Assembly (NCBI GenBank): GCA_963708025.1
Contig: CAVPSB010000014.1
Coordinates: 160,001-224,000, forward strand
Length of the DNA stretch: 64,000 nucleotides
DNA from: an uncultured Candidatus Rokubacteria bacterium
GTDB taxonomy: Bacteria; Methylomirabilota; Methylomirabilia; Rokubacteriales; DASRDR01
Direction: 5' to 3'
In this document: in pieces, positions 902-31,522 of the stretch
How the letters are laid out: every line of letters begins with the position of its first letter
Position numbering within the stretch: the stretch's first letter is position 1
The notes under the pieces: generated by a model
What the model was told of the DNA's origin: nothing
Databases searched by the model: none
Seen by the model: the letters and a program-made list of their open reading frames with translations, nothing else
Made by a program: the position numbers and the translations under genes

Positions 902-902
902 C

Positions 903-6995: not shown

Positions 6996-8435
6996 ATGAG
7001 CCGACCGCCGCCCCGGCATCTGCTGACATCCGTCCGGCTGGGCCCGTACGAGCTGCGGAACCGGATCGCCATGGCGCCGATGACGCGCCGCCGCGCCGGT
7101 CCGGACGGCGCGCCGACATCGGCCACGGCGACCTACTACGCCCAGCGCGCCTCCGCCGGGCTCATCGTCACCGAGGCCAGCCTCGTGTCGGCGATGGGTG
7201 CCAGCTACCCCGGCAGCCCCGCCATCTACTCGGACGCTCAGGCTGCCGCCTGGAGCCGCGTGGCGGGGAGCGTGCACGCCCGCGGCGGACGGATCTTCCT
7301 CCAGCTCTGGCACGCGGGGCGCGTGTCGCATCCGTCCATGCTCCCGGGCTCGGCGGCGCCAGTGGCGCCGTCAGCCATCGCGATCCGGGGGGAGATACGG
7401 ACCGCCTCCGGGACGGAGTCCTTCCCGACGCCACGTGCGCTCGAGCCCTCGGAGATCCGACAGATCGTCGCTCAGTTCGCCATGGGCGCTCGACGGGCGC
7501 GCGAGGCGGGGCTGGACGGCGTGGAGGTTCACGCGGCGCAGGGATACCTGATCGACCAGTTCCTGCGCGACGGGTCCAACACCCGGGTCGACGCCTACGG
7601 CGGGTCTGTCGAGGGTCGCGCGCGGCTACTCCTGGAAGTCCTGGAGGCGGTGTGCGGCGCGTGGAGCCCCGGGTGCGTGGGCGTCCAGCTCTCCCCGACG
7701 AGCTCGCTCAACGACATGCGCGACAGCGATCCGGCCGGGACGTTCGGGCACATCGCCGCGCGGCTGAACGAGTTCGGCCTCGCGTACCTGCACGTCTTCG
7801 AGCCGCTCGGGCCGGAGCCCCCGGAAGCACGGATGACGCCGCGCTTGCGGGCCGCGTTCCGGGGAGCCCTGGTCGCCAACGGCGGCTACCGCGGGGAGAC
7901 CGCGGAGGCCTCGATCGCCTCGGGGGCAGCTGACCTGATCTCGTTTGGCCGCCTGTTCATCGCCAATCCCGACCTGCCCGAGCGCTTCGCAGCCGGCGCT
8001 CCCCTCGACGAGCCCGATCCGACGACCTTCTATGGCGGAGGCGAGCGGGGGTACACGGACTACCCGCCATACCGGCCGCCGGGTGACGAGCCACCGCGCG
8101 CGGTTTCGGCCACGATCGGGCAGTCGACCGGCGGGGACGATCGGATCACGGCTCCTCGGAGTCTGCTCGTCCATCTGCAGCCGCGGGTCCGGAGATGCTC
8201 GCGCGCGGCGACGACTCTGGATCCCTCGACGTGGGCGCTTGGCGCAGACCTTGCTGTGGCACGTTCGCCCGGCGTCGGGCCTTTACGCGGCCTTGACGCG
8301 CCAGGGGATGGTCTTGACACCATCTTGATCCGGCGTGGGCGACACTTTCGTCGTGCAGCTCCCGTAGGGCTGGTGAGGCGACCTGGTTGGATGTCGGCGA
8401 CCGAGGGGATTCCCCCGCGACGAGGTGCGTCATGA
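6996..8435 (+). CDS. nemA: Old Yellow Enzyme family alkene reductase (homology ends near 8075; tail likely read-through)
   Basis: NRIAMAPMTR, YYAQRASAGLIVTEA, QLWHAGRVSH, EVHAAQGYLIDQFL, FYGGGERGYTDYP. Confidence 0.9.
   Translation: MSRPPPRHLLTSVRLGPYELRNRIAMAPMTRRRAGPDGAPTSATATYYAQRASAGLIVTEASLVSAMGASYPGSPAIYSDAQAAAWSRVAGSVHARGGRIFLQLWHAGRVSHPSMLPGSAAPVAPSAIAIRGEIRTASGTESFPTPRALEPSEIRQIVAQFAMGARRAREAGLDGVEVHAAQGYLIDQFLRDGSNTRVDAYGGSVEGRARLLLEVLEAVCGAWSPGCVGVQLSPTSSLNDMRDSDPAGTFGHIAARLNEFGLAYLHVFEPLGPEPPEARMTPRLRAAFRGALVANGGYRGETAEASIASGAADLISFGRLFIANPDLPERFAAGAPLDEPDPTTFYGGGERGYTDYPPYRPPGDEPPRAVSATIGQSTGGDDRITAPRSLLVHLQPRVRRCSRAATTLDPSTWALGADLAVARSPGVGPLRGLDAPGDGLDTILIRRGRHFRRAAPVGLVRRPGWMSATEGIPPRRGAS
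8239..8255 (+). promoter_or_regulatory. Sigma-54 -24/-12 promoter motif
   Basis: TTGGCGCAGACCTTGCT has GG-N10-GC spacing. Confidence 0.45.
8281..8350 (+). promoter_or_regulatory. Four-box direct-repeat promoter (KdpE/OmpR-type), copy A
   Basis: TT[TG]A[CT] boxes start at 8282, 8293, 8314 and 8325 (11/21/11 spacing). 56/70 ungapped identity to 27993-28062. Confidence 0.75.
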
Positions 8436-8603
8436 AGACGCTCGAAATCAGCGAAGAGGAGCGGGCCGAGCTGAGGTCCATCGTCACCACCTACCTCTCG
8501 GCACGTGCGGCTGGAGATGGTGGGCACCAACAGCGTCGACTTCCGCGAGGGGCTCGAGCAGCGCGAGACGCTCCTGAAAGGTCTTCTCCGCCAGTTGGGA
8601 TGA
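8432..8603 (+). CDS. Small helical hypothetical protein (about 56 aa) with one frameshift
   Basis: GAGG RBS. MKTLEISEEERAELRSIVTTYLS / RLEMVGTNSVDFREGLEQRETLLKGLLRQLG*. The span is 172 nt, so an indel lies near 8500. Confidence 0.6.
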
Positions 8604-8642
8604 CTGCCGAAAGTGTCGAACCCACGCGATTGGGCATCTGAC

Positions 8643-9526
8643 ATGGAACAACACGATCTGACCTTCGTCATTCCCACCTACCGCCTGGATGTCCGGGAGA
8701 CGCTGCCCCATCACGTCCGGTTGATGGAGCTCGTGTTCAAGGACGTCAGCCGCTTCGACGTGATCCACTTCCACACCGACTACCTGCATTTCCCGCTCGT
8801 GCGACGTCACCGATGCCCGAGCGTCACGACATTACACGGCATGGTCCACCCGCACGATCTGCAGGCACTGCTCGGGGAGTACCGAGACGTTGCGCTGGTG
8901 TCGATCTCGAACGATCAGCGCCGTCCGATTCCCGACGCAAACTGGCAGGCGACCGTCTACCATGGCCTGCCGCGCGAGTCCTTCACATTTCGCGCCGAAC
9001 CAGGGACGTACCTCGCGTATCTCGGGCGGATGTCGCCCGAGAAGCGGGTGGATCGTGCAATTGAGATCGCCCGGCGAGCGGGTGTGCCGCTCAAGATCGC
9101 CGCGAAGATCTACCCGGAGGAGCGGCACTACTTCGACGAGACGCTGGCGCCGCTGATCCACGCGTCACAGTCGCTCGTCGAGTTCGTTGGCGAGATCGGC
9201 AACCGCGAAAGAGACGACCTCCTCGGCAAGGCCGCCGCCCTGCTGTTCCCCATCGAATGGCCTGAGCCATTCGGCCTGGTCATGATCGAGGCCCGGCCTG
9301 CGGAACGCCCGTCGTCGCGTGGCGTCGCGGATCCGTCCCGGAAGTGCTGGAGGAGGGCGTCACCGGACGCATCGTGGACAGCGTCGATGACGCCGTCCGG
9401 GCGGTCGGCAGCATCGAGCGCCTGAGCCGGGCTGCCTGCCGCCGCGCATTCGAACAGCGGTTCGATGCCAGACGCATGGCGATGGACTACCTCGAGGTGT
9501 ATCGCCGCGTCGCTCCGGTCGGCTGA
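8643..9526 (+). pseudogene. GT4 glycosyltransferase lacking its N-terminus (chimeric 5' end), with a frameshift near 9292
   Basis: DVIHFHTDY, TTLHG, YLGRMSPEK, LLFPIEWPEPFGLVMIEA(frameshift)ACGTPV. No MRIAQVAP...GG N-terminal motif. Confidence 0.75.
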
Positions 9527-9732
9527 GCCGGGCATCCCACTTCGAAGGCATTCCTCGGTTCTGGTACGATAGCGGCACGTTGGCCCAGGTACTCGTCCGC
9601 GCGAACGACGCGGGCGCCGGAGAGTCGCGACGTGGATGTGCTGCTATCCGACCCCTCCTGCCCGGCGCCGGCGCTCCGCGTGTCCTCGACGGTCCGCATC
9701 GCTGACGCTCGGGAAAGGGTAGAAGCGATTCG

Positions 9733-12163
9733 ATGGCCACCGTCGTGGTCGCCCTCATGTCGATCCTCGCCGTGGGATTCCTGGGGACCTGGGCCGCGTC
9801 CAGACTCAGGGTCCCTCACAGCGTGTTCCTCGTCGTGCTGGGCGTGGCGGCCGGCATGTCCGTCCGTGGCCACGCGGGCGCCACCTACATCGGCCACCTG
9901 ACGGAACTCTTTCCGGATCTCGTTCTGCTCGTGCTCCTCCCTCCGTTGATCTTCGAAGCGGCCTACGGTCTCGACTTCGATCAGCTCCGCCAGGAACTCC
10001 TTCCCCTGGGTGCTCTCTCGATCGTGGCACTGGTGGTGTCAACGGCGCTGATCGGCTACGGTCTGCACTGGGTGTTTCGCTTCGAGCTGCTACCCGAGCC
10101 TCGTCTTCGGGGCGTTGATCTCCGCGACCGATCCCGTAGCGGTCCTGGCGCTGTTCAAGGAGGTCGGGGCGCCCCGCCGCCTCAACACCCTGGTCGAAGG
10201 CGAGAGCCTCCTCAATGACGGCACGGCCATCGTGCTGTTCAGAGTGCTCCTGGCGGCGACCGCGGCCTCTCAGCTCGGTACGGGCCTCATCGTCCGGGGC
10301 GTCCTGCAGTTCATCGAGGTCGCCCTGGGCGGCGCGCTCGTGGGCCTGGCCATGGCCGCGATGATGAGCCTGCTCCTGAAGCTCACCTCACGTTCCGGGG
10401 CTTCTCAGCTCGGCGTGACCGTGGTCGCGGCCTACCTGAGCTTCATCATCGCCGACCGCTACCTGGGGGTCAGCGGCGTCATCTCGACCTTGGTGGTCGG
10501 CTCTATCTGGGGCGTCGTGCGCGCCTGGAGCTGAACCGGGACGCCCTGGATGGGATGCGGCACGTGTGGCAGTTCCTGGCCCTCAGCGCGAATGTCGTCG
10601 TGTTCGTCGCGGTGGGGTTCGCCGCGGACCCCGCGCTCATCCGCGGCAATCTCGCCGTCATCTCGGCCACGGTGGGGATCGCCTACCTGGCGAGGGCCCT
10701 GTCCGTCTTCCTCACCATTCCCGCCGTCAACGCGCTTCGCCTCTCCCCGCCGATCAGCATCGCTTACCAGGTCGTGCTGTTCTGGGGTGGCCTCCGGGGT
10801 GGGCTCGCCCTGGGCTTGGTGCTTCTCCTGCCCGAGGGATTTCCCCACAAGCAACTCTTCGCCGTCCTGGCGATTGCCGTGGTGACGGCGACACTCCTGA
10901 TCAATGCCCTGACCACGAAGGGGGTCCTGCGCGTCCTCAAGCTGGATCAGCTGGAGCCGGCCGATCGGCGATTCTACGTGGAAGCCCTCGCCCTCGCCCA
11001 AAGGCGCCGCCTTCGATCAGCTCTCGAGAGCCGCGGACACGGGAGGCCTGTCCCGGGCCCTCGTCGAGCAACAACGAACGAGCGCGCGCAAGGCTCTCGG
11101 GGCCGCGCAGGCCACCGGCGACGAGTATCGGCAGGATCCGGACGTCCGATTCAGCGTCAGCGCCCTGCTCCTCCGCGAACGCCGGGTCATATGATCTGCG
11201 GCTCGCGGATGGCGTCCTCTCGAAGGACGCCTACTGGGAATTGCAGCAGCTGGTGACGAAGCGACTCGATGCGTTCCATCGAGAGGGCCTGACGGGACTG
11301 ACGGGATTTGCGTTCGGGCTCGGGGCCCCGGACCGGAATGGAGTGGCGGGCAAGTTCTTGACGAGATATCTCCTGAGCAAGATCGGGGGTCGGCTCCACC
11401 GCTTGACCATCCGTCTGGAGGTCTTGCTCCATCTCAAGCTCACCTTGGAGGAAGTCGCAGCCCTCGTCGCTCACGGTCCCCGTGAGCGGCTTGGTCAGGC
11501 AGTGGCTCGTGGAGGCCGACCGGGAATTGCAGACGTTCTTTCGCGCGTACCCGCACTACGGGGCCGCGGTTCAAACCTCGTTCATTGCCGATGCCGTCAA
11601 GGCCCGCAGCCGCACCGTCATCCAGCAGTTGTTCGAGGCCTCGATCATCAGCGGGTTCGTGCGCGCGAAGGCCGAGCAGCAGGTCGCGGCGATCCATGAG
11701 CAGGGCGTGGCCGGCGCGCGAAACCTGTTGACGCCGACCCGCGCGTACCTGATGGGCCGGGTCCCCTTGTTCCAGGCGCTCCCGCCGAGCCGCGCTCCAG
11801 AAGATCGCGGACTTCTCCAAGAGCGTCGTGGTGGAACCCGGACGTGTCGTGGTCCGCGAGGGGGAGGAAGGGCATTCGTTCTTCGTGGTGACGGCAGGCC
11901 TCCTGGAAGTACAGCGGTCCGGGGAGAGCGGGGAGGAGGGGCGTCCGCGCTTGTTCGCGGGCGACTTCTTCGGGGAGACGTCCCTGCTCTTCGACCAGCC
12001 CCGGAATGCCACGATCATCGCGGTCATGACGACGGAGTTGCTCGAGCTCGACCGGCCGACGTTCGAGTTCATCCTGAAGGAATATCCATTGGTGCGGACG
12101 CAGATCTACGAGACGGCGCAAGCTCGGAGAAGCGCCGGCGGCGACTGGACGCCGCCGAGCTAG
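9733..12163 (+). CDS. CPA1/NhaP cation:proton antiporter with C-terminal cyclic-nucleotide-binding domain (several frameshifts)
   Basis: [33 protein letters not shown] and cNMP cassette [17 protein letters not shown], spread over successive ORF fragments. Confidence 0.85.
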
Positions 12164-12230
12164 GCGATGGTCGCGAAGGACCCGCGCGTCGGTGGCGCCG
12201 CGGGTCTCGGCCACCCCGGCCACCGTGGAA

Positions 12231-12297
12231 CTTGATGACTTCTTGACGGGGCTACGCCCCGGTTTTACGCGTTCTTGATGGCGCGCACGGTATAACT
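12231..12297 (+). promoter_or_regulatory. Four-box direct-repeat promoter, copy B, with TATAAC -10
   Basis: Boxes start at 12232, 12243, 12264 and 12275 (11/21/11). TATAAC at 12291 has the same offset as GACACT in copies A and C. Confidence 0.75.
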
Positions 12298-12381
12298 CTG
12301 TCTGTACGTGACGCCCGCCTGTCCGGACGCCGAAGGGCGGCGTCACAGGGCATCGGACCAAGCGAGACCCGGAGGAGTGAG

Positions 12382-12552
12382 ATGGGCAGGAAGCCGGCCG
12401 AGAGGGAAGTCAAAGTCGCAGCGAAGGCCGCCCTCGGATTCGAATCGACTGCGCCGTGCGGCTGCTGCGGCGCCCCGTCCAGGCGTGTTCGCCAGCAGTG
12501 GCGGGCTTGCGCCAACGGGCACAGGTTCGTCAAGAAGAGCGATCAGCGCTGA
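12382..12552 (+). CDS. 56-aa putative zinc-ribbon microprotein
   Basis: GGAGGAG RBS. MGRKPAEREVKVAAKAALGFESTAPCGCCGAPSRRVRQQWRACANGHRFVKKSDQR*. It has its own promoter upstream and a hairpin downstream. Confidence 0.6.
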   Translation: MGRKPAEREVKVAAKAALGFESTAPCGCCGAPSRRVRQQWRACANGHRFVKKSDQR

Positions 12553-12563
12553 TCGCCCGAGCG

Positions 12564-12597
12564 GCGTGGCGCTTGGCCTCCAGGCCAAGCGCCACGC
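12564..12597 (+). terminator. 15-bp perfect hairpin after the microprotein gene
   Basis: GCGTGGCGCTTGGCC-TCCA-GGCCAAGCGCCACGC, with no U-tract. Confidence 0.5.
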
Positions 12598-12623
12598 TGG
12601 CGGGCCGATTCTGCGAGACAATT

Positions 12624-12800
12624 CCCGTAGTGTCCGAAAACCCATTCCACGCCTGGGCCGGCCCTGCAGTAGTCGCGCAGCCCCCCCAACTGCCCAGGGT
12701 GACGAACGTGGCTGGCCCGGAGAGCGCGGTTGTCGGGCGTGAGTAACTCGTCGCCGATCCCCTGATGGTTCCGCTCCTCGTGGTAATGCGCCACGAGCTT
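12624..12800 (-). mobile_element. 3' remnant of an IS (integrase-core/DDE transposase C-terminus)
   Basis: Minus-strand translation HYHEERNHQGIGDELL...LGGLRDY. IS-end-like sequence CCCGTAGTGTCCGAAAA near 12624. Confidence 0.6.
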
Positions 12801-12879
12801 TCGCGCTATGATCGAGGCGCGCGGGCCTCGTCGCCGGGCGACCGCGTGCGCCTTTCCTTCTTCGCCATGGAGATTGCCG

Positions 12880-13320
12880 ATGGCCACGCCCGCTGCCTTC
12901 AAGCGCATTCTCGCCGCCGTGGACGGGAGCGACCACGCACTCGGCGCCGCCCGGGCGGCCGCCCGGATGGCCCGGGCCCTGGGCGCCCGGCTGACCCTGT
13001 TGGCCGTCTACCACCAGCCGTCGGCCGCTCTCGGCGAGCCGAACTACTCGACGGCGCTCTCCGAGGCGCTCGCCCAGGCCCGCGCCATCATCGAGCGCGC
13101 CCGCGCGGCGGTCCACGAGGCCAGCGGGCTGGAGCCGGAGACCGAGTTGCTCGGGGGCGCTCCGGCCGAGACGATCATCGCGGCAGCCCGCGATGGCGGC
13201 TACGATCTCGTCGTCGTGGGCACCCGCGGGCGCGGAGCCGTGAAGGCGGCGCTGCTCGGCTCGGTCTCGACCACGGTCGCCGCGCACGCCGGGCGCCCGG
13301 TCCTGGTGGTCGGGGACTGA
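12880..13320 (+). CDS. Universal stress protein
   Basis: FKRILAAVDGSDHA; DLVVVGTRGRG...LLGSVS...PVLVV. Confidence 0.92.
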   Translation: MATPAAFKRILAAVDGSDHALGAARAAARMARALGARLTLLAVYHQPSAALGEPNYSTALSEALAQARAIIERARAAVHEASGLEPETELLGGAPAETIIAAARDGGYDLVVVGTRGRGAVKAALLGSVSTTVAAHAGRPVLVVGD

Positions 13321-13358
13321 GCGATCGACCGCCACGCCCTGCCTCACGCGCACGGCGA

Positions 13359-15821
13359 ATGAGCCACGTTCGAGACGATCTCCCGGTGTCGGCGGCCGCG
13401 TTGCGGGAATCCATCCAGCGGCACGCCAGGTACTCGCTGGCTCAGGCGTGGGGAACGCTTTCTCCGCACCAGCTCTTCGAGTGCGTCGGGCTCGCCGTGC
13501 GGGATCTCCTCGTCGACCGGCTGCTCGAGACCGGCGCACGCCATCGGCAGGCGGATGCCAAGCACGTCGCCTACCTCTCCATCGAGTATCTGCTCGGACG
13601 GTGCCTGACCAACAATCTGGTCAATCTGGGCATCTACGAGCTCTGTCGGGACACGCTCGGAAGCATCGGCGTGGACCTCGGGCTCGTGGAGGAGAGCGAG
13701 CGGGATGCCGCGCTTGGCAACGGCGGGCTCGGCCGGCTCGCCGCCTGCTTCCTGGACTCGCTGGCCACGCTCGGCATGCCGGGGGCCGGCTACGGCATCA
13801 ACTACGACTACGGGGTGTTCCGCCAGGAGATCGACAACGGCGACCAGAGGGAAAGGCTGGACAACTGGCGCGCCCTCCCGACACCCTGGGAGATCGAGCG
13901 GCCCGAGGAGGCCTGTCTCGTTCCGGTCTATGGCCGAATCGAGCACGGCGTGGACCGCCGGGGACAGTACAACCCGATGTGGCTGGAGTGGCGGCTCCTG
14001 ATCGGCGTGCCCCACGACTTCCCCGTCGTCGGCTACGGAGGCCGGACGGTGAACCTCCTCCGGCTGTTCTCCGCACGGGCGTCGCATGACTTCGACATGC
14101 AGATCTTCAACACCGGCGACTACGTGAAGGCCGTGGAACAGAAGATCGCCTCGGAGACCGTCTCCAAGATCCTCTATCCGTCCGACGCCGTGCCCCCCGG
14201 CCAGGAGCTCCGGCTGGTCCAGGAGTACTTCCTCGTCGCCTGCGCCCTGCGAGACATCGTCGCGCGATACGAGCGGGATCACCCCGGCGGCTTCGACGCG
14301 TTCCCGGACAAGGTCGCCATCCAGCTCAACGACACTCATCCCGCCCTCGCCGTGGCCGAGCTGATGCGCATCTTGGTCGATGAGCGAGATCTCCCGTGGG
14401 ACACCGCCTGGGACATCACGCAAGCGACCATGGCGTACACGAACCACACGCTGCTGCCGGAGGCGCTCGAGAAGTGGCCCGTCTTCCTGCTGGAGCGGGT
14501 CGTGCCCCGGCACCTGCAGATCATCTACGAGATCAACCGGCGCTTCCTGCGACACGTCGCGGCCCTCTGGCCCGGTGACGACGCCCGCCTGCAGCGGATG
14601 TCGCTCGTCGAGGAATGGCCGTCGAAGCAGGTGCGAATGGCCCACCTGAGCATCGTCGGCAGCCACTCCATCAATGGCGTGTCCGCGCTTCACAGCCGGC
14701 TCGTCCAGACGACGCTGGCGCCCGACTTCTACCGGCTCTGGCCGGAGCGGTTCAACAACAAGACGAACGGCGTCACGCCCCGCCGGTGGCTGGTCCAGGC
14801 CAATCCCCTGCTGTCGGGTCTGATCAGCCGGACGATCGGCGATCGATGGATCACCGACCTCGACCGCCTGCGCGAGCTCACGCCATGGGCGAGCGACGCC
14901 GCCTTCCAGCGCGAGTTCCTGGCCATCAAGCGGTCCAACAAGGAGAGACTGGCCCGCGTGATCGAGGAGACGACCGGGATCACCGTCGATCCGGAGTCGC
15001 TCTTCGACGTGCAGATCAAGCGGATCCACGAGTACAAGCGGCAGTTGCTGCGGGTCATGCACATCGTTCACGAGTATCTCGGCCTCGTCGAGGACGGCAC
15101 GGACCCGCCCGTGCCGAGGACGTGCATCTTCGCGGGAAAGGCGGCGCCAGGGTACCAGGTCGCCAAGCAGATCATCAAGGTGATCTGCAGCGTCGCCTCG
15201 GTGATCAACCACGATCCGCGGGTGAAGGGCCGGCTCCGGGTCGTCTTCGTACCCGACTACCGCGTGTCGCTGGCGGAGAAGATCATCCCCGGCGCCGATC
15301 TGAGCGAGCAGATCTCGACCGCCGGAACGGAGGCCTCCGGGACCGGCAACATGAAGCTCGCCATGAACGGCGCGCTGACGATCGGGACGCTCGACGGCGC
15401 GAACGTCGAGATCCGGGCCGAGGTGGGCGCCGAGAACATCTTCATCTTCGGCCTGACCGCGGACGAGATCCAGGCTTTGCGCGACGGCAGGCGTTACCGC
15501 CCACGCGACCTCTACGAGCAGAACGCCTCCGTGAGACGGATCGTCGACGCGTTCGACTCCGGCCTGTTCTGTCGGCAGGAGCCCGGGCTTTTTCGCTGGA
15601 TCACCCGGTCCATCCTGGACGGCGGAGACGTCTACTTCCATCTCGCCGACCTGCCCGCGTACATCGAGACACAGGACCGAGTGGCCGGCGAGTTCAGGCA
15701 CCCGGCGGCGTGGGCGTCCAAGGCGATCCTGAATGTCGCCCGGATCGGCCGATTCTCCAGCGATCGCACGGTCAGCGAGTACGCCCGGGACATCTGGAGG
15801 ATCGGCCGGGTCGAGGGCTAG
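13359..15821 (+). CDS. glgP: Glycogen/alpha-glucan phosphorylase
   Basis: LGNGGLGRLAACFLDS, QLNDTHP, NKTNGVTPRRW, and PLP-lysine motif EASGTGNMK. Confidence 0.96.
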   Translation: MSHVRDDLPVSAAALRESIQRHARYSLAQAWGTLSPHQLFECVGLAVRDLLVDRLLETGARHRQADAKHVAYLSIEYLLGRCLTNNLVNLGIYELCRDTLGSIGVDLGLVEESERDAALGNGGLGRLAACFLDSLATLGMPGAGYGINYDYGVFRQEIDNGDQRERLDNWRALPTPWEIERPEEACLVPVYGRIEHGVDRRGQYNPMWLEWRLLIGVPHDFPVVGYGGRTVNLLRLFSARASHDFDMQIFNTGDYVKAVEQKIASETVSKILYPSDAVPPGQELRLVQEYFLVACALRDIVARYERDHPGGFDAFPDKVAIQLNDTHPALAVAELMRILVDERDLPWDTAWDITQATMAYTNHTLLPEALEKWPVFLLERVVPRHLQIIYEINRRFLRHVAALWPGDDARLQRMSLVEEWPSKQVRMAHLSIVGSHSINGVSALHSRLVQTTLAPDFYRLWPERFNNKTNGVTPRRWLVQANPLLSGLISRTIGDRWITDLDRLRELTPWASDAAFQREFLAIKRSNKERLARVIEETTGITVDPESLFDVQIKRIHEYKRQLLRVMHIVHEYLGLVEDGTDPPVPRTCIFAGKAAPGYQVAKQIIKVICSVASVINHDPRVKGRLRVVFVPDYRVSLAEKIIPGADLSEQISTAGTEASGTGNMKLAMNGALTIGTLDGANVEIRAEVGAENIFIFGLTADEIQALRDGRRYRPRDLYEQNASVRRIVDAFDSGLFCRQEPGLFRWITRSILDGGDVYFHLADLPAYIETQDRVAGEFRHPAAWASKAILNVARIGRFSSDRTVSEYARDIWRIGRVEG

Positions 15822-15911
15822 ACGCTGGGCATCGCCACCCTGGAAGACGTCCTGGAATCCCTGGTGGGCGACGTGCGGGAAGCCCCCCGCGGAGGTGGCC
15901 CGTCATGCTAG
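15822..15911 (+). pseudogene. C-terminal remnant of a CBS-pair (CorC/HlyC-like) gene
   Basis: TLGIATLEDVLESLVGDVRE... begins directly after the glgP stop and resembles the GIVTLED.LE.LVG motif. Confidence 0.5.
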
Positions 15912-18900
15912 TCGACATCTCGCACCGACGAGGCGCCGGATACTGGGCGGCGATCTTGGGCGTCGCTGTCGTGACGGCCATCTTCGCGCCGCTTCACGCC
16001 ACGCTCAGCCCCACGACCGTGGCGCTGGCGTATCTGCTCGTCGTCCTCTTCGTGGCGACCGTCCGGGGCAGCAGGCCCGCGACGGTGGCGTCGGTGCTCG
16101 GCATGCTCTGCTTCAACTTCTTCTTCTTGCCGCCCATCTACAGCTTGACCATCGCCGATCCGCAGAACTGGGTTGCGCTCACCGCCTTTCTCGTCACGGC
16201 CGTCACCGCGGGGCAACTCTCGGACCGGGCAAAGCGGCGCGCCGCCGAGGCCGAGGCCGGGAGGTCGGCGAGCGCCTACAACCGAAGCCTGATCGAGGCG
16301 AGCCTCGACCCGCTCGTGACCATCGGGTTCGACGGCCGGATCATCGACGTGAATGCCGCCATCGAGTCGGTGACCGGCCGCCCGCGAGCCCAGCTCATCG
16401 GGACGGACTTCTCCGGCTATTTCACCGAGCCGGAGCGGGCCCGGGCCGGGTACCAGCAGGCGTGGCGCGCTGGCTTCGTGCGCGACCATGCCCTGGAGCT
16501 CCGACACCGCGACGGGCACAGCACGTCGGTCCTGTACAGCGCGTCGGTCTATCGGGACGACCGCGGACACGTCATCGGGGTGGTCGCGGCCGCCCGCCCC
16601 ATCCGCACGTCCGCCGGACAGCCCGCGCGCGCGCTGGCGGATCCCGAAGTGGTCAGAGGCCTGCGTCGCTTCATCGCGTTCACGAGCGTGGCGTCCGCCG
16701 CCGTCGGAGTGCTGGGACTCGCCGGCTGGATGTTTCGCATTCCCGTCCTCAAGAGCGTCATCCCGGGCCAGGTGGTCATCAAGCCCAACACCGCCGTCTG
16801 TCTGGTGTCGATCGGCCTCTCGCTGTGGCTGATGCGGAAAGTGGACGATCGCCCCGTCCCCAGAGCCCGGAAGCTCGGCGGTCAGCTGCTGGCGGCCCTC
16901 ACCGCGGCGGTGGGCCTGCTGAGCCTGACCGAGCACGTGATCGGCTGGGACCTGGGGATCGATCAGTGGCTGTTCCAGGAAACCGCCGCGGACGCGATTG
17001 GAAGCGTTCGTCCGGGCCTGATGGCGCCGATCACCGCCCTGGACTTCCTGCTCCTGGGGCTCGCGCTGCTGGGGCTGGACTGGACGATCTGGTGGCGATC
17101 GCGCCGGTATTCTCCCGCCCAGGTCTTGGCGGGTGTGGCGGGAGTCGCCTCGATCGTGGGTTTGCTCGACTTCGTGCTCAAGTCAGCGATCTCCTACACT
17201 CACGTCGCGCTGCAGACGGCGGTCACCCTGTGTCTCTTGTCTCTCGGCGTGGTCTGTGCGCGCACCGAACGGGGGGTCCCGGCCCTGTTCGTCAGCTCCA
17301 GTGTGGGCGGAACGCTCGTCCGGCGCCTGCTGCCCGCGGCCATCGTCATTCCGATCCTGATCGGCGCCCTGTGGTGGAAAGCCTTGTCCGCGGGTCTCGC
17401 CTCCGCGTGGAGCGGGGGCACCCTGATGATCGTGGCGATGATCGCCCTGCTGGGAAACCTCACGGTGCTGGTCGGATTCCTCATCGATCGCGCCGACGTG
17501 GAACGCCGGAAAGCGGAGGGAGGTCTGCACCGGCGGGAGGAGGAGCTCAGAGAGGCGCAGCGGCTCGCCCGAGTAGGCAGCTGGTCGTGGGAGCCAGCGA
17601 CCGACAGGGTCACCTGGTCCGAGGGGCTGTACCGCATCGTCGGCCGCGATCCGAAGCTGCCTCCCCCCGTCTACCGCGAGCACTCCCGCTTCTATACGGC
17701 CGAGAGCTTCGCTCGGCTGGACGCGGCGGTGCAAGAGGCCCTGCGGACGGGAGCCCCGTACGAGCTGGACCTGGAGCTGGTGACGGCCGACAGGGCTCGG
17801 CGCTCGATCACGGGCCGCGGGGAAGTGGAGCGCGATGCCGATGGCCGCGTCGTGCTCGTGCGCGGCACCGTGCACGACATCACCGAGCGCAAGCAGGCGG
17901 AGGAGGCCCTGCAGAGATCGGCGGACGAGACCCGCGATCTCTACAACCACGCGCCCTGCGGGTATCACTCCGTCGACAAGGACGGCGTCTTCGTCCGGAT
18001 CAACGATACCGAGCTGGAGTGGCTGGGATATGCGCGCGAGGACGTGATCGGAAAGGTGAAGTTCCCCGATCTCCTCGCGCCGAGGAGCCGGAGCACCTTC
18101 GAGGCCGCGTTCCCGCGACTGAAGACGGAAGGCACGGTGCGCGACATCGAGTTCGACCTGGTCCGCAAGGACGGCACGATCCTGCCCGTGCTCCTCAGCG
18201 CGACGGCGATCACCGATCCCGACGGGCAACTATCTGATGAGCCGCTCGATGGTCTACGACATGACCGAGCGCAGGCGGGCGGAGGAGGCCTTGCGGCAGG
18301 CGAGTGCCTACAACCGGAGCCTGATCGAGGCCGCGCTGGACCCGCTGGTGACCATCGGCCCGGACGGGCGGATCACCGACGTGAATGCGGCCACCGAGGC
18401 GGCGACCGGGCATCCTCGCGGGGTGCTGATCGGCACGGACTTCTCGGAGTACTTCACCGACCCGGAGAAGGCCCGGACGGGTTATCGGCAGGTGTTTCAG
18501 GAAGGCTTCGTGCGGGACTACGCCCTCGAGCTTCGCCACCGCGACGGGCGCCTCACGTCGGTCCTGTACAACGCCTCGGTCTACCGGGACAGCGGGGGAC
18601 GGGTGATCGGCGTCTTCGCCGCGGCGCGTGACATCACCGCGCGCAAGCAAGCCGAGGAAGCGCTGCGCGCGAGCGAGGCCAACCTGAATCGAGCGCAAGA
18701 GATCGCGCACCTCGGGAGCTGGCATCTGGACGTCGCCCGCGATCGACTCACCTGGTCCGATGAAGTGTTTCGCATCTTCGGAGTCTCCAGGGGCACGGCC
18801 CTGACCTACGAGGCCTTCCTCGATTCGCTGCACCCCGAGGACCGGGAAGCCGTCGATCAGGCATGGGCCGCCGCCCTGCGCGGAGCCCCGTACGACATCG

Positions 18901-21280
18901 AGCACCGCATCGTCGTTGGCGGCGAGCTGAAATGGGTGCGGGAGCGGGCGCAGGTCGAGTTCGACGCGGATGGCCGCGCCGTGAGGCGGAATCGGCACGG
19001 TCCAGGACATCACCGAGCGGAAGCGGGCGGAGGACGAGATCCGCCGGCTGGCTCGCCTGCAGGCGGAAGCCGCCGAGCTGGGGCAAGACGCCCTGCGCGG
19101 CGCGCCCTTGCAGGAGGTGCTGGACGGCGCGGTCACGCGGGTGGCCCGGGCTCTCGGCGTCGATTACTGCAACGTCGCGGAGATGCTCCCGGGCGGCGAC
19201 GAGTTCCTCCTGCGCGCGGGCGTCGGCTGGAAGGAAGGGGTCGTGGGGCGAGCGACGGTGAAGAGCCGTGGCTCCCAGCCCGGATACACCGTCCTCAGCG
19301 ACCGCCCGGTGATCGTCGAGAACGCGGCGACGGAAACACGCTTCGCCCCGCTGCCGCGGCTGCTCGGTGAAGAGGTCGGGAGCGCGATGAGCGTGGTCAT
19401 CTCCACCGCGGAAGGCCCCTACGGCGCCCTGGGCGCCCATAGCCGGCGTCGGCGGGTGTTCACGGGAGACGAGGTCAACTTCCTCCAGGCGGTCGCCAAC
19501 GTGCTCGGCATGGCCATCGAGCGCCGGCGCGCGGAGGAACGGCTCCGTCGCGTCAATCGCGCGCATCGTGCCCTCAGCACGTCCAACGAGGCCCTGGTCC
19601 GCGCCACCGACGAGTCCGCGCTGCTGCGGCAGATCTGCCAGATCATCGTCGAGGAGGCGGGGTATCGACTCTGCTGGGTCGGCTATGCGGAAGGGGACGC
19701 CGCCCGGACCGTGCGGCCCATCGCGCAAGCGGGGTTCGACGAAGGGTACCTGAAGGCGGCGAACATCACCTGGGCGGACTCCGAGCGCGGCCGCGGGCCG
19801 ACGGGGACCTGCATCCGCACGGGCCAGATCCAGATCGCGAAGAACATCGGCACGGACCCGAAGCTGGCGCCGTGGCGCGCGGATGCGCTCCGGCGCGGAT
19901 ACGCCTCGTGCATCGCCATCCCGCTCGTGGCCGAGGGCCAGCCGTTCGGCGCGCTGACGATCTACTCCCCGGAGATCGAGGCGTTCGGGGACGAGGAGGT
20001 GAGGCTCCTGAGCGAGCTGGCCGGCGATCTGGGCTATGGCATCGTGTCGCTGCGCACGCAGGCCGATCGAAAGAGGGCCGAGGTGGAAGAGGTGGCCCGT
20101 GAGCGCGAGGTCGCGATCGGCTTCAAGATCCAGCAGATGCTGCTCCTGGACGAGCCGCCCCGGGACATCCCCGGACTGCGCGTGGCCGCGCTCGACCGTC
20201 CCCTCGCAGCGGATCGCCGGCGATTTCTACGACTTCTTCACCCACCAGGACGAGAGCCTCGACCTCATCGTCGCGGACGTGATGGGCAAGGGAATCCCTG
20301 CCGCGCTCCTGGGCGCGGCGACCAAGAGCCATTTCACGGAGGCCCTGTGCCACCTGATTGCGCTGTCCCCGGTCGGGGCACTTCCGGAGCCCCGGGAGGT
20401 CGTGACCCTGGCCCATGCGGGCATGGCGCGGCATCTGATCGAGCTCGAGAGCTTCGTGACCCTGTGCTACGCCCGCGTGGACCTGACCCGCCGCCGCCTC
20501 GACCTCGTCGATTGCGGACATACGGGAGTCATCCACGTGCGGGGCGGGACCGATCGCTGCGAGATGGTCCACGGAGACAACCTGCCGCTCGGCATCCGCG
20601 AGGGCGAGATCTACGATCAGATCACCGTCCCGTTCGAGGCCGGAGACGCCTTCCTCTTCTACTCGGACGGGGTCACGGAGGCGTCCAATCCCGCCGGAGA
20701 GCGGTTCGGCGCGGACCGTCTGATGGCTTGTGTCCAGACGAACGCGAATCTCGCGCCCGACGCGCTGGTGGGCGCGATCCGCACGGCCGTCCTCGCATTT
20801 GCCGGCTCGGACCGGCTGACCGATGACCTCACGTGTGTGGCCGTCGAGGTCGGAGAGCGCCGGCGTCCGCTCGCGCGAGGGGAGACGGAGATTCGCAGCG
20901 ACCTCAAAGATCTGAGCCGGGCCCGCGAATTCGTGCGCACCTTCTGCCGCGCACTTCCCGGGCCACCGCTCGACGAGGACCGCGTGGCCGAGCTTGAGCT
21001 GGCGGTGAACGAGGCAGCCAGCAACGTCATGAAGCACGCCTACCATGGGCGCGCCGATCAGCGGATTCATCTCGAGGCCGAAGCGTTTCCGGACCATGTC
21101 GCGGTCCGGCTGCACCATCTCGGAGATCCCTTCGATCCGTCGGCGGTGCCCCCGCCCGCTTTCGATGGCTCCCGCGAGTCCGGATTCGGCGTCTATCTGA
21201 TCACGAGGAGCGTCGACGACGTCCGCTACTATCGCGACGAGCGCGGGGGCAACTGTATCGCCCTGGTCAAGATGCGCTGA
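15905..21280 (+). CDS. Giant membrane sensor: DUF4118-PAS-TM-multiple PAS-GAF-GAF-SpoIIE/PP2C phosphatase-RsbW-like HATPase (frameshifts near 18228, 18985, 20193)
   Basis: FNFFFLPPIYSLTIADPQNW (KdpD-type TM), PAS/PAC ends such as DITERKQAEE, PP2C motifs GDFYD/ADVMGKG/YSDGVTEA/DDLT, and anti-sigma kinase motifs LAVNEAASNVMKHAY...GFGVYLI. Confidence 0.85.
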
Positions 21281-21303
21281 ACCCGAGGTGAGGGACGAAC
21301 ACG

Positions 21304-21632
21304 ATGGCAATCGCATTCGACCGGATGGGCGACGTGACCGTGGCCCTGGTGCCCATGGAGGAGCTCGACGCGGGCAACGCGGCGGAGTTCAAGAGTGACG
21401 TCGCCCCGTTGCTCGAGACCACGACGAGGCTCGTGTTCGACCTGAGCCGGCTGCGCTTCGTGGACAGCTCCGGACTGGGCGCCTTCATCTCGTGCCTGCG
21501 GAAGCTGAACGCCAAGGGCGGCGACGTGAAGCTCTGCGGAGTGTCCAAGCCGGTCCGGGCGGTGTTCGAGCTCGTGCGCATGCACCGGATCTTCGATATC
21601 TGCGGAACGCGAGAGGAGGCCGTGCGGATGTT

Positions 21633-21642
<10 letters not shown>
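21304..21642 (+). CDS. STAS-domain anti-sigma factor antagonist (RsbV/SpoIIAA-like)
   Basis: FDLSRLRFVDSSGLGAF with the phosphoacceptor Ser. Confidence 0.93.
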
Positions 21643-23835
<2,193 letters not shown>

Positions 23836-24056
23836 CGAGGCCTCCTCAGAGCGGCGATCGCCGGAGGCGCGATCGCGGCGGCCGCTCACATCGCCCCCGA
23901 TCCCGCTTGATGTGGACTGCGGCGGTCCGCGATCGTAGCACACACGGTGTCGTGATCTCGTGCCCCGCCTCAGCCTGCACGAATGCGGCATCATGAGAGG
24001 ATGGAACCACGTGAAATGAGGACCGGCCTCTTTCGCGCGTTCAGGGGCGGGACGTC

Positions 24057-24878
24057 GTGACCGTCCTCCTCTGCCCAGTCCGGGGTTGCTGCCGACCACT
24101 GGTGCGCGAGGAGAGTCGCCTGGCCTGCCCGCGCCGACATTCCTTCGATATCGCCCGCAGCGGCTACGTCAACCTCCTTCAGCCACAGGACCGCAAGGCC
24201 GCCCGTCCCGGCGACTCGGCCCACGTCCTGGCGGCGCGGCGGCGATTGCTCGCCCGGGGATTCGAGACGCCGCTCACGGAGGCGATCGTCAGGCTCCTCA
24301 CGCTCGGCCCGGGCGACGCCGCCCTCGAGGTCGGGTGCGGCGAGGGCCATCACCTTGCGGCGATCGCCGCGCGATTCACGTGCGAGGGACACGGCCTCGA
24401 CATCTCCGCGGCCGCGATCGACGCCGCGGCCAGGCGGTATCCCGGGCTTCACTGGGTCGTGGCGAACGCCGACCGCTTCCTGCCGTACGCCGACGCGTCG
24501 TTTCGCGTCGTGGCCTCCATCACGGCGCGACGGAACGCGGCCGAGTTCCGGCGCGTCCTCCGCGATGACGGCACTCTCCTCGTCGTCGTCCCCGGGCCCG
24601 ACGATCTCATCGAGCTGCGCCACGCGATCCTCGGCGAGGGCATCGTGCGGGATCGCGTGGAGAGCGCGATCGCGGCGTTCGCGCCGCTCTTCACGCTCGC
24701 GCGCCGCCAGCGCATCCGTCACGTCGCGCGCCTCGACGCCGCTTCCATCCGCGACGTCATGACCACCTCGTATCGCGCCGGTCGCGCAAGCCGGCGCGGG
24801 CGTCTGGCGTCGATCGGCGCCCTCGACGTCACGCTGAGCCGCGACGCGCTGCTCTTCCAGCCGGCCCGGCCCGTTTGA
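24057..24878 (+). CDS. RlmA-like SAM-dependent RNA methyltransferase with N-terminal Zn finger
   Basis: CPVRGC...CPRRHSFDIARSGYVNLL; EVGCGEG. Confidence 0.8.
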   Translation: MTVLLCPVRGCCRPLVREESRLACPRRHSFDIARSGYVNLLQPQDRKAARPGDSAHVLAARRRLLARGFETPLTEAIVRLLTLGPGDAALEVGCGEGHHLAAIAARFTCEGHGLDISAAAIDAAARRYPGLHWVVANADRFLPYADASFRVVASITARRNAAEFRRVLRDDGTLLVVVPGPDDLIELRHAILGEGIVRDRVESAIAAFAPLFTLARRQRIRHVARLDAASIRDVMTTSYRAGRASRRGRLASIGALDVTLSRDALLFQPARPV

Positions 24879-24946
24879 CACGGGCTCTCCTGGCGCCGAT
24901 GGGGGGATCGAGCATGTGGAGCAGAGGGCGACCGGCTCCCTTGATC

Positions 24947-27623
24947 CTAGCGCCCGCCCGCTTCCCGCAGTCGCTGCAACAGCTCGCCCAGGCGGCGAAG
25001 CTCTTCGCTCGCGCGCGTGAGGGCGGAGGCCGCGGCATCCAGCAGCGTCTTCACCGAGCCCTCGGCCCCCACCGGGGGACTCGGCGCCACCTCGGCCCCC
25101 GCCCGCGGCGCCGGTCCACCGAACACCCGCGCCATCGCGCCCGTCCAGCGTCTCCTCCATGGCGATCCGGTCCCCGAAGCCGACGATCACGCGCTTGAGC
25201 TCCGGGAGCTGCCCCTTCTCGGCGGCGATGTAGAGCGGCTCGACATACACGAGGGAGCGCTCGATGGGGATGACCAGGAGATTCCCCCGGATCACCTGGG
25301 AGCCCCGCTGGTTCCAGAGGGAGAGCTGCTGGGAGATGAACGAGTCCTGGTCGATCCGGGCCTCGATCTGCCGGGGTCCGTAGATCAGTTTCTGCTTGGG
25401 GAAGTTGTAGACGACGAGCTTCCCATAGTGGGGCGGGTCGCTCCGCGCCGCCAGCCACGCGGACAGGTTGTCCTTCTTGCTGGGAGTGAAGGGGATGAGG
25501 AGGACGAACTCCTCCTTCGGCTCGCCGGGCAGGCGCAAGATGAGGTAGTAGGGCTCCATGGCCTGATCCTGCCCACCCACGGGGCGGACCGGGATGCTCC
25601 AGAGGTCCTCCTTGTTGTAGAAGACCTGGGTGTCGCGCATGTGGTAGACGGCGTACATCCCCGCCTGGATCCGGAACAGCCCCTCGGGGTAGCGGATATG
25701 GGCGCGGAGGTCGGCCGGCATGGCGTCGAGCGGCTGGAGCAGCCCGGGGAAGATCCGCGCGATCGTGCGGATCAGGGGATCCGCCGGATCCGCGACATAG
25801 AAGTGCACCGTCCCGTCGTAGGCGTCCACGGTCACCTTGACGGCGTTGCGCACGTAGTTGCCCAGCCCGCGCGTCGGCGTCGAGTACGGGAACCGGTCGG
25901 AGACCGTGTAGCCATCCAGGAGCCAGACGATGCGCCCCGCCGCCGAGATCACCATGTAGGGATCGTCGTCGTACCGGAAGAACGGGGCGATCCGCTGGAC
26001 CCGCTCCCGGATGTTCCGGTAGATCAGCACCCGGCTTTCCGTGGTCAGGTCGTTCGACAGGAGGAGCTTGAGGTCCCCCAGGTGCGCCGCGAACAGCGCC
26101 TTGCGCCAGAAGGACCCCAGCGGGATCCCGCCCTGTCCCTCGTACGTGGTGTAGACGTTCTGGTCCCCCGCCGGGTAGTCGAATTCCTTGGCCCGGGTCT
26201 TCACGAAGACATAGTCGGTGGCCAGCTCGCTGAAGTAGAGCTCCGGGCGGGAGATCCGGAGATCGCTGGAGGCCACCGGAGGGATGTCCTTGACCCAGAA
26301 CTCGGGGAGCCCCTCGCGCGTCACCCGGTTCACCGGGCTCACCACGGCGCCGTAGCCGTGCGTGTACGTCAACCGCTCGTTGATCCAGATCCGGCTCGGC
26401 AGATCCTTCGCGGAGAGCTCCCGCGGCGACAGGGTCACCTGCCGGTACTCCCCGTTGATGGTGTACCGATCGATATCGATATCCGTGAACTTGTAGTAGG
26501 TCCGGATCTCTTGGAGCTGGCTGTAGGTGGCGAGCAGGGGCCGGGTGTCCCACAAGCGGATATTCTTGATGGTCGCGTCGTTCTTGCGCAGGTCCTGAAG
26601 CGTCAGCGTCTGCTCGGCCGGGAACTCCCGCTCCTCGATGTTGTCCAGGCCGTAGGCCAGGCGGGTGTAGCGGATGTTGAAGTCGATGTACGGCTTCTCC
26701 TTGACGATCTCGTTCGGGGACACCTGGTACCGCTGGATCAGACCCGGGTACGCGACCCCGCCCAGGATCGCCACGCCCACCAGCGCGGCGACGCTCCACA
26801 GGAGGGGGCGCCAGCTCCGGAGACGGATCGTGACCAGGCACAGGACGGCGACCAGGCCGGCCAGGACCATCAGGGCCTTCAGGACCGGGAGCTGGGCGTG
26901 GACGTCGGCATAGCCGGCGCCGAAGGCCACGCCCCGCTGGGAGAAGAGGAGGTCGAACATGGCCAGACGGTACCCGGCGGCCTTCAGGAGGAGCAGCAGG
27001 GCCGCCAGGACCAGGAGGTGACCCCGGGCCCGTCGGGAGATCGAGACGGCCCTCGGGGGAGACCTGAATGCCCCGGGTGCAGAAGTACACGGCGATCGCG
27101 GCCAGACCCGAGAGGATGAGGACCCCCATCAGCCAGCCATAGAGGGAGCTCCAGAGCGGGAGCTGGAACACGTAGAAGGCCACATCCTGGTCGAAGAGCG
27201 GGTCCCGGATGCCGAACGGCGTGGGATTCAGAGCCTTCAGGACCAGCTCCCATCGGCCCGTCCCCAGCCAGCCGGCGAGGAGGGCCAGGATCACGCTCAC
27301 GGGCAAGGCCAGACGGCGGAGGTAGGGCTCCAGGATCTCTGGACTGGGCAGCCCGAGGGCGTCGTCCGCCGCCACGAGGACCTCGCGCGGGGCGAGCCGC
27401 CGGGCGAGGATCACGTTGCCGTACAGGATCAGGAAGAACGCGGCGCCCGTGACCACCCCGAGGAGGACCTGCGTCCGGAGCACGGTGACGAAGACCGACG
27501 TGAACTGCACCTCGCGGAACCAGAGCCAGTCGGTGTAGAGGCCGAGGATCTGGCCGGCCGTGCTCAGAAGGGCGATGGCGGCGATGACGAGGATCAGCCA
27601 CGATGAGACCACGGAACACGCAT
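24947..27623 (-). CDS. UPF0182 family membrane protein (frameshifts near 27610, 27055, 25143)
   Basis: YTDWLWF, DPLFDQDVAFYVFQLP, GAGYADV, NIRLWD, YTHGYG, NYVRNAVK, GNLLVIPI, YVEPLY. Confidence 0.9.
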
Positions 27624-27850
27624 GGGACGGCCCTCCCTCCCGAGGTTCACCGACGGGCGATGGATCCTGCCCGCCGGACCAGGACCGAATCGCGAATCAC
27701 GGAGAGCTCGGCAGCACTCCGATCCGATGCATTTTCCCCGCCGTGCCTCGGCGGCGAGCGGCGGCGCGGCGTGGAGGCTGAGGGCCGAGCGAACGAGGCG
27801 GGTAATGGCCCTGAGGTGTCTCCAGGCCTCCTGAACCGGCGAGTGCGGCG

Positions 27851-27879
27851 AGTGTAGGCCGGAGGCCAGTCGGGGTCAA
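27851..27879 (-). promoter_or_regulatory. Sigma-70 promoter for UPF0182
   Basis: TTGACC-N17-TACACT on the minus strand. Confidence 0.6.
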
Positions 27880-27992
27880 GCCGGCCGGGGACGCTGCCTC
27901 CCCAGTTGGGGCGCCCGGTCCCCGATGGGGCGGCGACGCCACATGTGGTCCCCGAGGCTGCCGCCGGGCCGGGGCGTCCGAACTTACCGGGT

Positions 27993-28062
27993 CTTTACGC
28001 GCCCTTGATGCCCCAGGGCATGGATTTGACGCCATCTTGACCTGGTATGGACGACACTTCGG
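27993..28062 (+). promoter_or_regulatory. Four-box direct-repeat promoter (KdpE-type), copy C, upstream of porin-kdp
   Basis: Boxes start at 27994, 28005, 28026 and 28037 (11/21/11). GACACT at 28053. Confidence 0.8.
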
Positions 28063-28134: not shown

Positions 28135-28275
28135 CGCTCCCGCACCTCGGCGCCGAGGGCCCTCGCGGGATCCGACGCCTCCCCGGAGATTCCCGGGAGG
28201 GTTCCTGCTGGCGCCGGACCCGGCCGTGGGCCGGGAGTCGGACGCCCTGGCATGACGCCAGGAAGGGAGGGGACC

Positions 28276-29598: not shown

Positions 29599-29688
29599 AT
29601 GGCGCTCTACGTGATCGGCGGAATCGTGTCGCTCGGACTCCTCGTCTACCTGGTGGTGGCGCTGCTGAAGCCGGAGGTGTTCTCATGA
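29599..29688 (+). CDS. kdpF: K+-transporting ATPase subunit F
   Basis: [29 protein letters not shown]. Its stop overlaps the kdpA ATG. Confidence 0.9.
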   Translation: MALYVIGGIVSLGLLVYLVVALLKPEVFS

Positions 29689-31486: not shown

Positions 31487-31522
31487 GCGTCGAAGCCTGT
31501 AGCGACGGAGGTCGCAGCTACC

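Follow-up and report, generated by a model that had tools for sequence, protein, structure and literature searches.

Described KdpE operators and the sites in the window

KdpD and KdpE form one of the most widespread two-component systems, and the operator of KdpE has been described mainly from two half-sites of Escherichia coli. Here we analyze a 64-kilobase (kb) stretch of DNA from an uncultured Candidatus Rokubacteria bacterium (contig CAVPSB010000014.1, positions 160,001 to 224,000 of the forward strand; G+C 71%), called the window below and numbered from its first letter, in which a pattern of four TTKAY boxes (K, G or T; Y, C or T) occurs at three places, named sites A, B, and C. Site C lies upstream of a porin gene and kdpFABC; sites A and B precede genes other than kdpFABC. 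Comparison with characterized promoters and with other genomes makes it likely that each of the three is an activator-dependent promoter under the control of KdpD/KdpE, the two-component system of potassium (K+) limitation and osmotic stress.

In the kdpFABC promoter of E. coli K-12, the sequences TTTAT, TTTAC, TTTGC, and TTTGC stand at offsets 0, 11, 32, and 43, followed by TACCCT at offset 59. The half-sites S1 (TTTATA) and S2 (TTTACA) were defined by electrophoretic mobility shift assay (EMSA), mutagenesis, and ultracentrifugation in the part of PMC3264566 drawn on here, and fall on boxes 1 and 2 of this layout, which a passage of bioRxiv 10.1101/256826 terms “tandem KdpE binding sites.” The window shares with this promoter the half-site class (TTTAY/TTGAY), the period of 11 base pairs (bp), the 0/11/32/43 layout, a TAnnnT-like hexamer at +59, and kdpFABC downstream. 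The two differ in that only boxes 1 and 2 are described as the KdpE site of E. coli in these excerpts, boxes 3 and 4 being degenerate, whereas all four boxes are intact in the window; the window also has a porin gene ahead of kdpF, unlike E. coli kdpFABC. Phosphorylated E. coli KdpE had a single target in genomic SELEX, according to the excerpt of PMC5934670, whereas three promoters within 20 kb carry the site in the window.

A second characterized case comes from Mycobacterium smegmatis, a high-G+C organism like that of the window, where a 22-bp KdpE site upstream of kdpFABC was found by DNase footprint and EMSA and is reported, in the excerpted text, as unlike other KdpE motifs (PMC5401905). 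Read on the complementary strand, this 22-mer contains TTGAT-N6-TTTAC preceded by TTTC, that is, one two-box unit with the consensus flank found here. The excerpt describes this one 22-bp site and reports no second pair, which sets it apart from the window. Targets beyond kdpFABC are described in a Caulobacter preprint that combines chromatin immunoprecipitation sequencing (ChIP-seq) with RNA sequencing of the KdpE regulon, and reportedly in papers on KdpE and virulence genes in pathogens (PMC3610689, PMC3482499); those regulons hold other targets than the universal stress protein (Usp), glycogen phosphorylase (GlgP), antiporter, and two microproteins of the window. Neither a second promoter-proximal pair of KdpE boxes nor a four-box operator shared across phyla was found in full-text searches of a literature that takes in few subscription journals. 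The regulator and its half-site are known; the proposed two-dimer architecture and the added targets were not found described in that literature.

Three four-box sites

Sites A, B, and C and their −10-like hexamers are as follows; the scores come from a position weight matrix built on 48 loci of other genomes, introduced below.

Site A, 8282..8329, + strand: TTTAC, TTGAC, TTGAC, and TTGAT at 8282, 8293, 8314, and 8325; 32.3 bits
−10-like hexamer of site A, 8341..8346, + strand: GACACT, 11 nucleotides (nt) past the end of box 4
Site B, 12232..12279, + strand: TTGAT, TTGAC, TTTAC, and TTGAT at 12232, 12243, 12264, and 12275; 45.7 bits, the best of the three
−10-like hexamer of site B, 12291..12296, + strand: TATAAC
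Site C, 27994..28041, + strand: TTTAC, TTGAT, TTGAC, and TTGAC at 27994, 28005, 28026, and 28037; 33.4 bits
−10-like hexamer of site C, 28053..28058, + strand: GACACT

The pattern TTKAY-N6-TTKAY-N16-TTKAY-N6-TTKAY, with box starts at 0/11/32/43 (spacing 11/21/11), has exactly these three matches in the window (8282, 12232, and 27994), all on the + strand. No match occurred in 100 dinucleotide-preserving shuffles of the window, and allowing up to three mismatches added no further site in it. The two-box unit occurs six times, always inside sites A, B, and C, against an expected count of 0.01. All three sites are intergenic, lie on the coding strand, and keep a constant distance to the hexamer, which begins exactly 16 nt past the start of box 4 in each case. 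An earlier note on this DNA, made from the letters alone, had given these boxes and hexamers with their positions and had named occurrence at background frequency as one finding that would refute its regulon; the positions are borne out on reading (hexamers at 8341, 12291, and 28053), and three real copies stand against none in the shuffles. The matrix scan that it proposed was run on the window with the matrix from elsewhere, and only sites A, B, and C score high: the next-best position, an offset of site A, reaches −6.8 bits. The hexamer GACACT of sites A and C also stands, in identical form, upstream of kdpA at a Thermoleophilaceae locus (L004). At 27983–27987, CTTAC precedes box 1 of site C by 11 nt and could be an additional, weak box that keeps the phase of the four.

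In PhoB-type promoters, pho boxes made of 11-bp direct repeats replace the −35 element, are often tandem, and end, at the proximal site, about 10–11 nt before the −10. The four-box sites resemble these promoters in the missing −35 consensus and in tandem sites on one helical face; PhoB differs from KdpE in its half-site sequence, in being another regulator, and in answering phosphate rather than K+. As in class II, pho-box-like OmpR/PhoB-family promoters, the activator site of the window promoters lies over the −35 region, no −35 consensus stands at 16–18 nt from the −10 of sites A and B, and the −10 is conserved. A simple scan of positions 8000–13500, which covers sites A and B and not site C, found no sigma-70-type −35/−10 pair, and this fits activator-dependent promoters. 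As in a KdpE operator, each site has two direct-repeat pairs of TTTAYA-class half-sites with an 11-bp period, and site C, ahead of porin-kdpFABC, has the same offsets to the −10 as the E. coli promoter.

Four-box sites in other genomes

Reference genomes were scanned with a tightened pattern that has C ahead of boxes 2 and 4. The scan gave at least 120 loci, of which 80 were taken with 2-kb flanks and 40 with 300 nt; the source genome is not among them. For the long-flank loci, the two longest downstream open reading frames (ORFs) on the motif strand were compared with Pfam, which amounted to 125 ORFs from 75 of the 80 loci, the other five having no ORF of at least 90 amino acids (aa). The downstream families among the long-flank loci listed were these:

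KdpA: 22 loci
DUF4118/HisKA/HATPase or KdpD-domain genes: 10 loci, 5 of them with an adjoining response regulator
TrkH: 5 loci
Kup (K_trans): 3 loci
AA_permease_2 transporters: 8 loci
Total: 48 loci

One more locus (L023) gained a kdpA by tblastn, so that at least 49 of the 80 long-flank loci are K+-linked, with the genes just downstream. One of the eight AA_permease_2 proteins was compared with solved structures (L063), and the K+ transporter KimA was its only match (E 1e-62). Among the short-flank loci, of which 38 of 40 were examined, nine have Kup, DUF4118, KdpF, or KdpA within 300 nt, to which L116 can be added as a weak case and L115 by its blastn and tblastn likeness to the kdpF-kdpA junction of the window. 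The motif thus accompanies K+ uptake genes, as expected of a KdpE operator, in at least 49/80 long-flank and 10–11/40 short-flank loci. The K+-linked loci listed span at least 12 phyla, with the phylum read from organism names. Among the other long-flank loci are plain tandem repeats, along with contexts that could not be interpreted.

Positions left free by the search pattern are conserved in the 48 K+-linked loci: box 1 is preceded by ATC and box 3 by TC, a T precedes the C ahead of box 2, and TAnnnT (T1, A2, and T6) starts at +16. Since these positions did not enter the pattern, their conservation speaks for a real promoter element rather than a search artefact. Loci from Bacteroidota have TAnnTTTG at the place of the hexamer, which we take to be the −7 element of that phylum. 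Taken together, the comparison suggests that the four-box architecture is a widespread form of the KdpE operator and not peculiar to this genome.

We also considered that the pattern could arise by chance or from repeat elements and play no part in regulation, as simple tandem repeats do occur among the loci listed (L010, L034, L045, L059, and L072). This explanation is already contradicted by the shuffles, the downstream Pfam families, the conserved free positions, and the matrix scores; the intergenic position of the three copies on the coding strand, at a fixed distance to the hexamer, and the K+ genes behind the pattern in at least 49 of 80 loci elsewhere speak against it as well, and we regard it as very improbable.

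Some loci call for separate mention. At a Paraburkholderia bannensis locus (L005, 2001–4030), genes for Usp and, next, NhaA come after the four-box site, in parallel to sites A and B; the window is therefore not alone in having a stress protein and a cation/proton antiporter behind this operator. In Enterobacter (L042 and L043, 2001–3500; L090), a well-formed site lies 48 nt upstream of a glutamine-synthetase-family (Gln-synt_C) gene instead of kdp; it could be due to chance or point to a KdpE target that has gone unnoticed. Three loci (L100, L113, and L114) share a second related sequence.

Genes downstream of the three sites

The genes behind sites A, B, and C are listed in their order in the window.

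Microprotein A, 8432..8603, + strand: 56 aa, predicted helical; 1-nt indel near 8501–8504
Remnant of a GT4-type glycosyltransferase, 8613..9523, + strand: Pfam Glyco_transf_4 and Glycos_transf_1; frameshift near 9296–9311
Pieces of a CPA1-type Na+/H+ exchanger with a cyclic-nucleotide-binding (cNMP_binding) domain near the 3′ end, 9706..12163, + strand: Pfam Na_H_Exchanger in two frames, NCBIfam a_cpa1
Microprotein B, 12382..12552, + strand: 56 aa, zinc-finger-like; conserved Cys26, Cys29, Cys43, and His47
Usp, 12808..13320, + strand: Pfam Usp, E 1.6e-31, full-length
GlgP (glycogen/alpha-glucan phosphorylase), 13359..15821, + strand: intact; Pfam Phosphorylase, NCBIfam P_ylase with 1105 bits
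Outer-membrane beta-barrel porin (BBP2/OmpL-like), 28252..29478, + strand: Pfam BBP2, E 7.5e-70; start codon uncertain
kdpF, 29599..29688, + strand: Pfam Potass_KdpF, E 3.2e-9
kdpA, kdpB, and kdpC, 29685..34373, + strand: each over two or more frames; Pfam KdpA, E1-E2_ATPase/Hydrolase, and KdpC
Second kdpA, 34414..36216, + strand: directly after kdpC, in three frames; Pfam KdpA profile positions 8–548 over three ORFs

The earlier note had assigned two unannotated microproteins to these promoters. Both are, judged by conservation, real genes, and in this respect the proposal stands; they are not the sole cargo, however, as Usp and GlgP lie behind site B, and the truncated glycosyltransferase and the CPA1-cNMP antiporter behind site A.

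Neither microprotein has a family in Pfam or NCBIfam, and ESM Atlas look-alikes of both (scores 0.87–0.90) are unnamed clusters only. Microprotein A has a Shine-Dalgarno-like GAGGTG ahead of its ATG, and in our own count the frame with a G+C-rich third codon position changes, one frame holding up to about 8500 and another from 8505 on. When a single step of four letters is put into the translation, two metagenome proteins (56 and 66 aa) match it at 89–93% identity; since these run uninterrupted over the break, the microprotein gene is real and has a 1-nt indel in the window. For microprotein B, 38 protein clusters match (33–75 aa, all unnamed), 36 of which cover 98% or more of its length; in an alignment with 17 of the 38, the Cys-x2-Cys ... 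Cys-x3-His signature is invariant or nearly so. The AlphaFold model of microprotein B, built from 18 sequences, has short beta-strands and a mean predicted local distance difference test (pLDDT) score of 68.8, and its best matches in the PDB, zinc-ribbon ribosomal proteins, are not significant (E 0.6 or worse).

About 50 N-terminal residues are missing from the GT4 remnant, as full-length homologues align from their residue 53–82 on. The microprotein A gene sits where the missing coding sequence would be. A reading of 8505–8600 as the GT4 N-terminus was rejected because the metagenome proteins cross 8432–8600 and GT4 homologues do not align there. The pieces in 9706..12163 are probably one antiporter gene with a cNMP domain, split over several frames. 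Behind site B, the minus-strand ORF 12543–12908 was tried as a transposase remnant and dropped, because Pfam gives no hit there and Usp is encoded on the + strand at 12808–13320.

Site C stands in a divergent gap between a UPF0182 gene on the − strand and the porin. Between porin and kdpF, positions 29491–29574 hold a hydrophobic 27-aa ORF with no Pfam match; a similar peptide (50% over 24 aa) is found ahead of the kdp genes at locus L115. The window kdpA has 68–73% nucleotide identity with kdpA of L044, L051, and L007. The second kdpA is closest (78% at the nucleotide level) to kdpA of L025, which itself bears a four-box site; in the window it has no kdpF, kdpB, or four-box site of its own.

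Frameshifts are unevenly spread over the window. Genes split over two or three frames are kdpA, kdpB, kdpC, the second kdpA, a KdpD-like gene, the antiporter, GT4, UPF0182, a PAS-GAF-SpoIIE gene, and microprotein A; the frame-split regions are 8432–12163, 18237–21280, 23991–27612, 29685–36216, and 39296–41440. Whole genes include GlgP (2.4 kb), an isoamylase (2.9 kb), the porin, and Usp. Such an uneven distribution points either to a locally faulty assembly or to true decay of the genes.

Relationship of sites A and C

Sites A and C are identical at 56 of 70 positions (counted from 8281 and 27993), exactly as the earlier note had it. Outside the boxes, 22 of 28 positions agree between A and C, compared with 10/28 for A and B and 12/28 for B and C; the similarity begins exactly at box 1 and takes in about 40 nt of the leader, where 23 of 30 positions (offsets +80 to +109 from box 1) are identical. 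The leader element common to both (AGGGCYGKTGAGGCGACC) occurs within the window only at those two places. It was considered as a conserved RNA element and rejected in favor of paralogy, the core of AGGGCYGKTGAGGCGACC being present in only 1 of 121 loci, there within a gene. Rfam had no match at gathering scores in the whole window, and in E-value mode nothing above chance level came up in the leaders of C and A (E 0.8–0.9), with no known riboswitch there. Folding of the leaders of A, B, C, and the Methylomirabilota locus L009 was indistinct from that of shuffled sequences (z-scores −0.6 to −1.7).

This pattern of identity suggests that the likeness of A and C is partly due to common descent. 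An alternative is that site A arose by recent duplication of the promoter and leader of site C, stands before decayed genes, and does not work or no longer does, with only C and B functional; the truncated GT4 and the frameshifts in microprotein A and the antiporter would agree with it. Frameshifts are equally common in the kdp genes behind site C, however, microprotein A is conserved and keeps its Shine-Dalgarno-like sequence, and the Paraburkholderia locus also has a cation/proton antiporter behind a four-box site. We regard a silent site A as improbable.

Regulator and sensor genes

Two further genes of the window resemble parts of the KdpD sensor.

KdpD-like sensor, 39296..41440, + strand: KdpD-N, Usp, DUF4118, and GAF domains; one frameshift
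DUF4118-only membrane protein, 43314..44096, + strand: 260 aa; 68% nucleotide identity to L009 879–1587

A search of the window with three KdpE proteins by tblastn found no kdpE, in agreement with the earlier note; the sole match is the receiver domain of a hybrid kinase at 45185–45979.

Locus L009, from Methylomirabilota, offers the closest comparison for site B. Its order is four-box site, microprotein-B orthologue, and DUF4118-only gene, with a convergent regulator nearby. The microprotein copy is 73% identical and lies some 90 nt past the four-box site of L009, in which the boxes of site B are kept and the spacers differ. The counterpart of the DUF4118-only protein follows the microprotein-B gene and lies beside kdpE: the best NCBIfam model of the regulator is KdpE, scoring 290 bits against 202 for the next, and among solved structures its best matches are those of E. 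coli KdpE (E 1e-77, next 1e-48). These matches clearly identify the regulator next to the operon of the site-B type as an orthologue of KdpE.

The missing kdpE leaves room for another OmpR/PhoB-family regulator whose specificity resembles that of KdpE, such as a paralogue that acts together with the DUF4118-only protein and the KdpD-like protein without a kinase core; A and B would then answer a signal other than K+. The unusual sensor pieces (KdpD-N/Usp/DUF4118/GAF with no kinase core, and the DUF4118-only protein) agree with this, as do the genes behind A and B, which are not strictly K+ transporters. Against it, one matrix built from K+-gene promoters elsewhere fits all three sites, the regulator beside the site-B-type operon of L009 is a KdpE orthologue, and no second regulator candidate was seen. 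Such a regulator is an unlikely alternative to KdpE, with about the same standing as a silent site A.

Proposed mechanism and its weighing

The proposal of a KdpE-like regulator, which the earlier note drew from the E. coli half-sites, gains support from three independent lines: the association with K+ genes, the E. coli layout, and the footprinted M. smegmatis site. In the mechanism that we propose, two dimers of phosphorylated KdpE, a winged-helix protein of the OmpR/PhoB family, would bind the two direct-repeat pairs of a site. The repeats within a pair are 11 bp (one turn) apart and the pair centers 32 bp (three turns), which would turn all four boxes to the same side of the helix. Of the two pairs, the distal one would correspond to the classical E. 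coli KdpE site, and the proximal one, which ends 11 nt before the −10 hexamer, would replace the −35 element in the manner of a pho box bound by PhoB. With a transcription start about 7 nt past the hexamer, the boxes would lie near −71/−60 and −39/−28, with the proximal pair over the −35 region; the classical E. coli footprint, from about −72 to −50, would match the position of the distal pair.

Scarcity of K+ would then turn on three units: from site C, porin-kdpF-kdpA-kdpB-kdpC (and the second kdpA); from site B, the zinc-finger-like microprotein, Usp, and GlgP; and from site A, the helical microprotein and the cNMP-domain Na+/H+ antiporter. The Kdp pump, the two microproteins, Usp, GlgP, and an ion antiporter are thus probably switched on together. 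The sequences themselves show the pattern, its non-random occurrence, the genes behind it, and its association with K+ genes elsewhere, whereas KdpE binding, the stoichiometry of two dimers, the inducing signal, the place where transcription starts, and the reach of the operons are inferred.

Several observations weigh against control by KdpD/KdpE. No kdpE lies in the window, and no HisKA or HATPase domain was detected in the KdpD-like sensor (39296..41440), which is also frameshifted. The hexamer GACACT of sites A and C is without the first T of the −10 hexamer. The motif found by MEME in the ChIP-seq data of the Caulobacter preprint (TCGAMRACGCSMKC) is unlike the four-box site, which also counts against generality. 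The genome scan was conditioned on four boxes and shows association rather than prevalence, so that two-box-only kdp promoters cannot be counted by it; 31 of the 80 long-flank loci showed no K+ gene, some of them being plain repeats (L010, L034, and L059). The likeness of A and C, being partly due to common descent, does not wholly reflect independent selection. Finally, the frameshifts that break GT4, microprotein A, the antiporter, and the kdp genes may point to a regulon in decay or to a poor assembly.

Beyond the window, a wider reading is possible, which we put forward as tentative and hold somewhat more doubtful than not. The four-box, two-dimer promoter may be the general and probably ancestral KdpE operator (Bacteroidota, Bacillota, Chloroflexota, Actinomycetota, and Pseudomonadota), of which the two-half-site version of E. 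coli would be a form with a decayed proximal pair; it would mark a pan-bacterial K+ regulon (Kdp, Trk, Kup, KimA-like, and kdpDE) that in the lineage of the window took in two conserved microproteins. Of these, one is tied to kdpE and to a sensor-type membrane protein with DUF4118, and on this reading both could be novel helpers in the sensing of K+.

Neighboring genes

At the start of the window (3–2069, − strand), adjoining genes with the Pfam domains DO-GTPase2 and GASH (GTPase-associated system helical) are a candidate GTPase-associated conflict system, unrelated to the four-box sites.

Significance

If four boxes are the usual form of the KdpE operator, the pattern would be a sharp sequence probe, as it alone picked out K+ uptake genes across many phyla, and KdpE regulons would become readable from genomes, those of uncultured lineages included. 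It would also suggest a mechanism with two dimers, one of which replaces the −35 element, that can be tested in vitro. For the window, the KdpE reading would, if true, give a K+ and osmotic-stress context to two unannotated families of conserved microproteins. Glycogen breakdown, a stress protein, and an antiporter with a cyclic-nucleotide domain would likewise, if this is true, be linked to K+ homeostasis.

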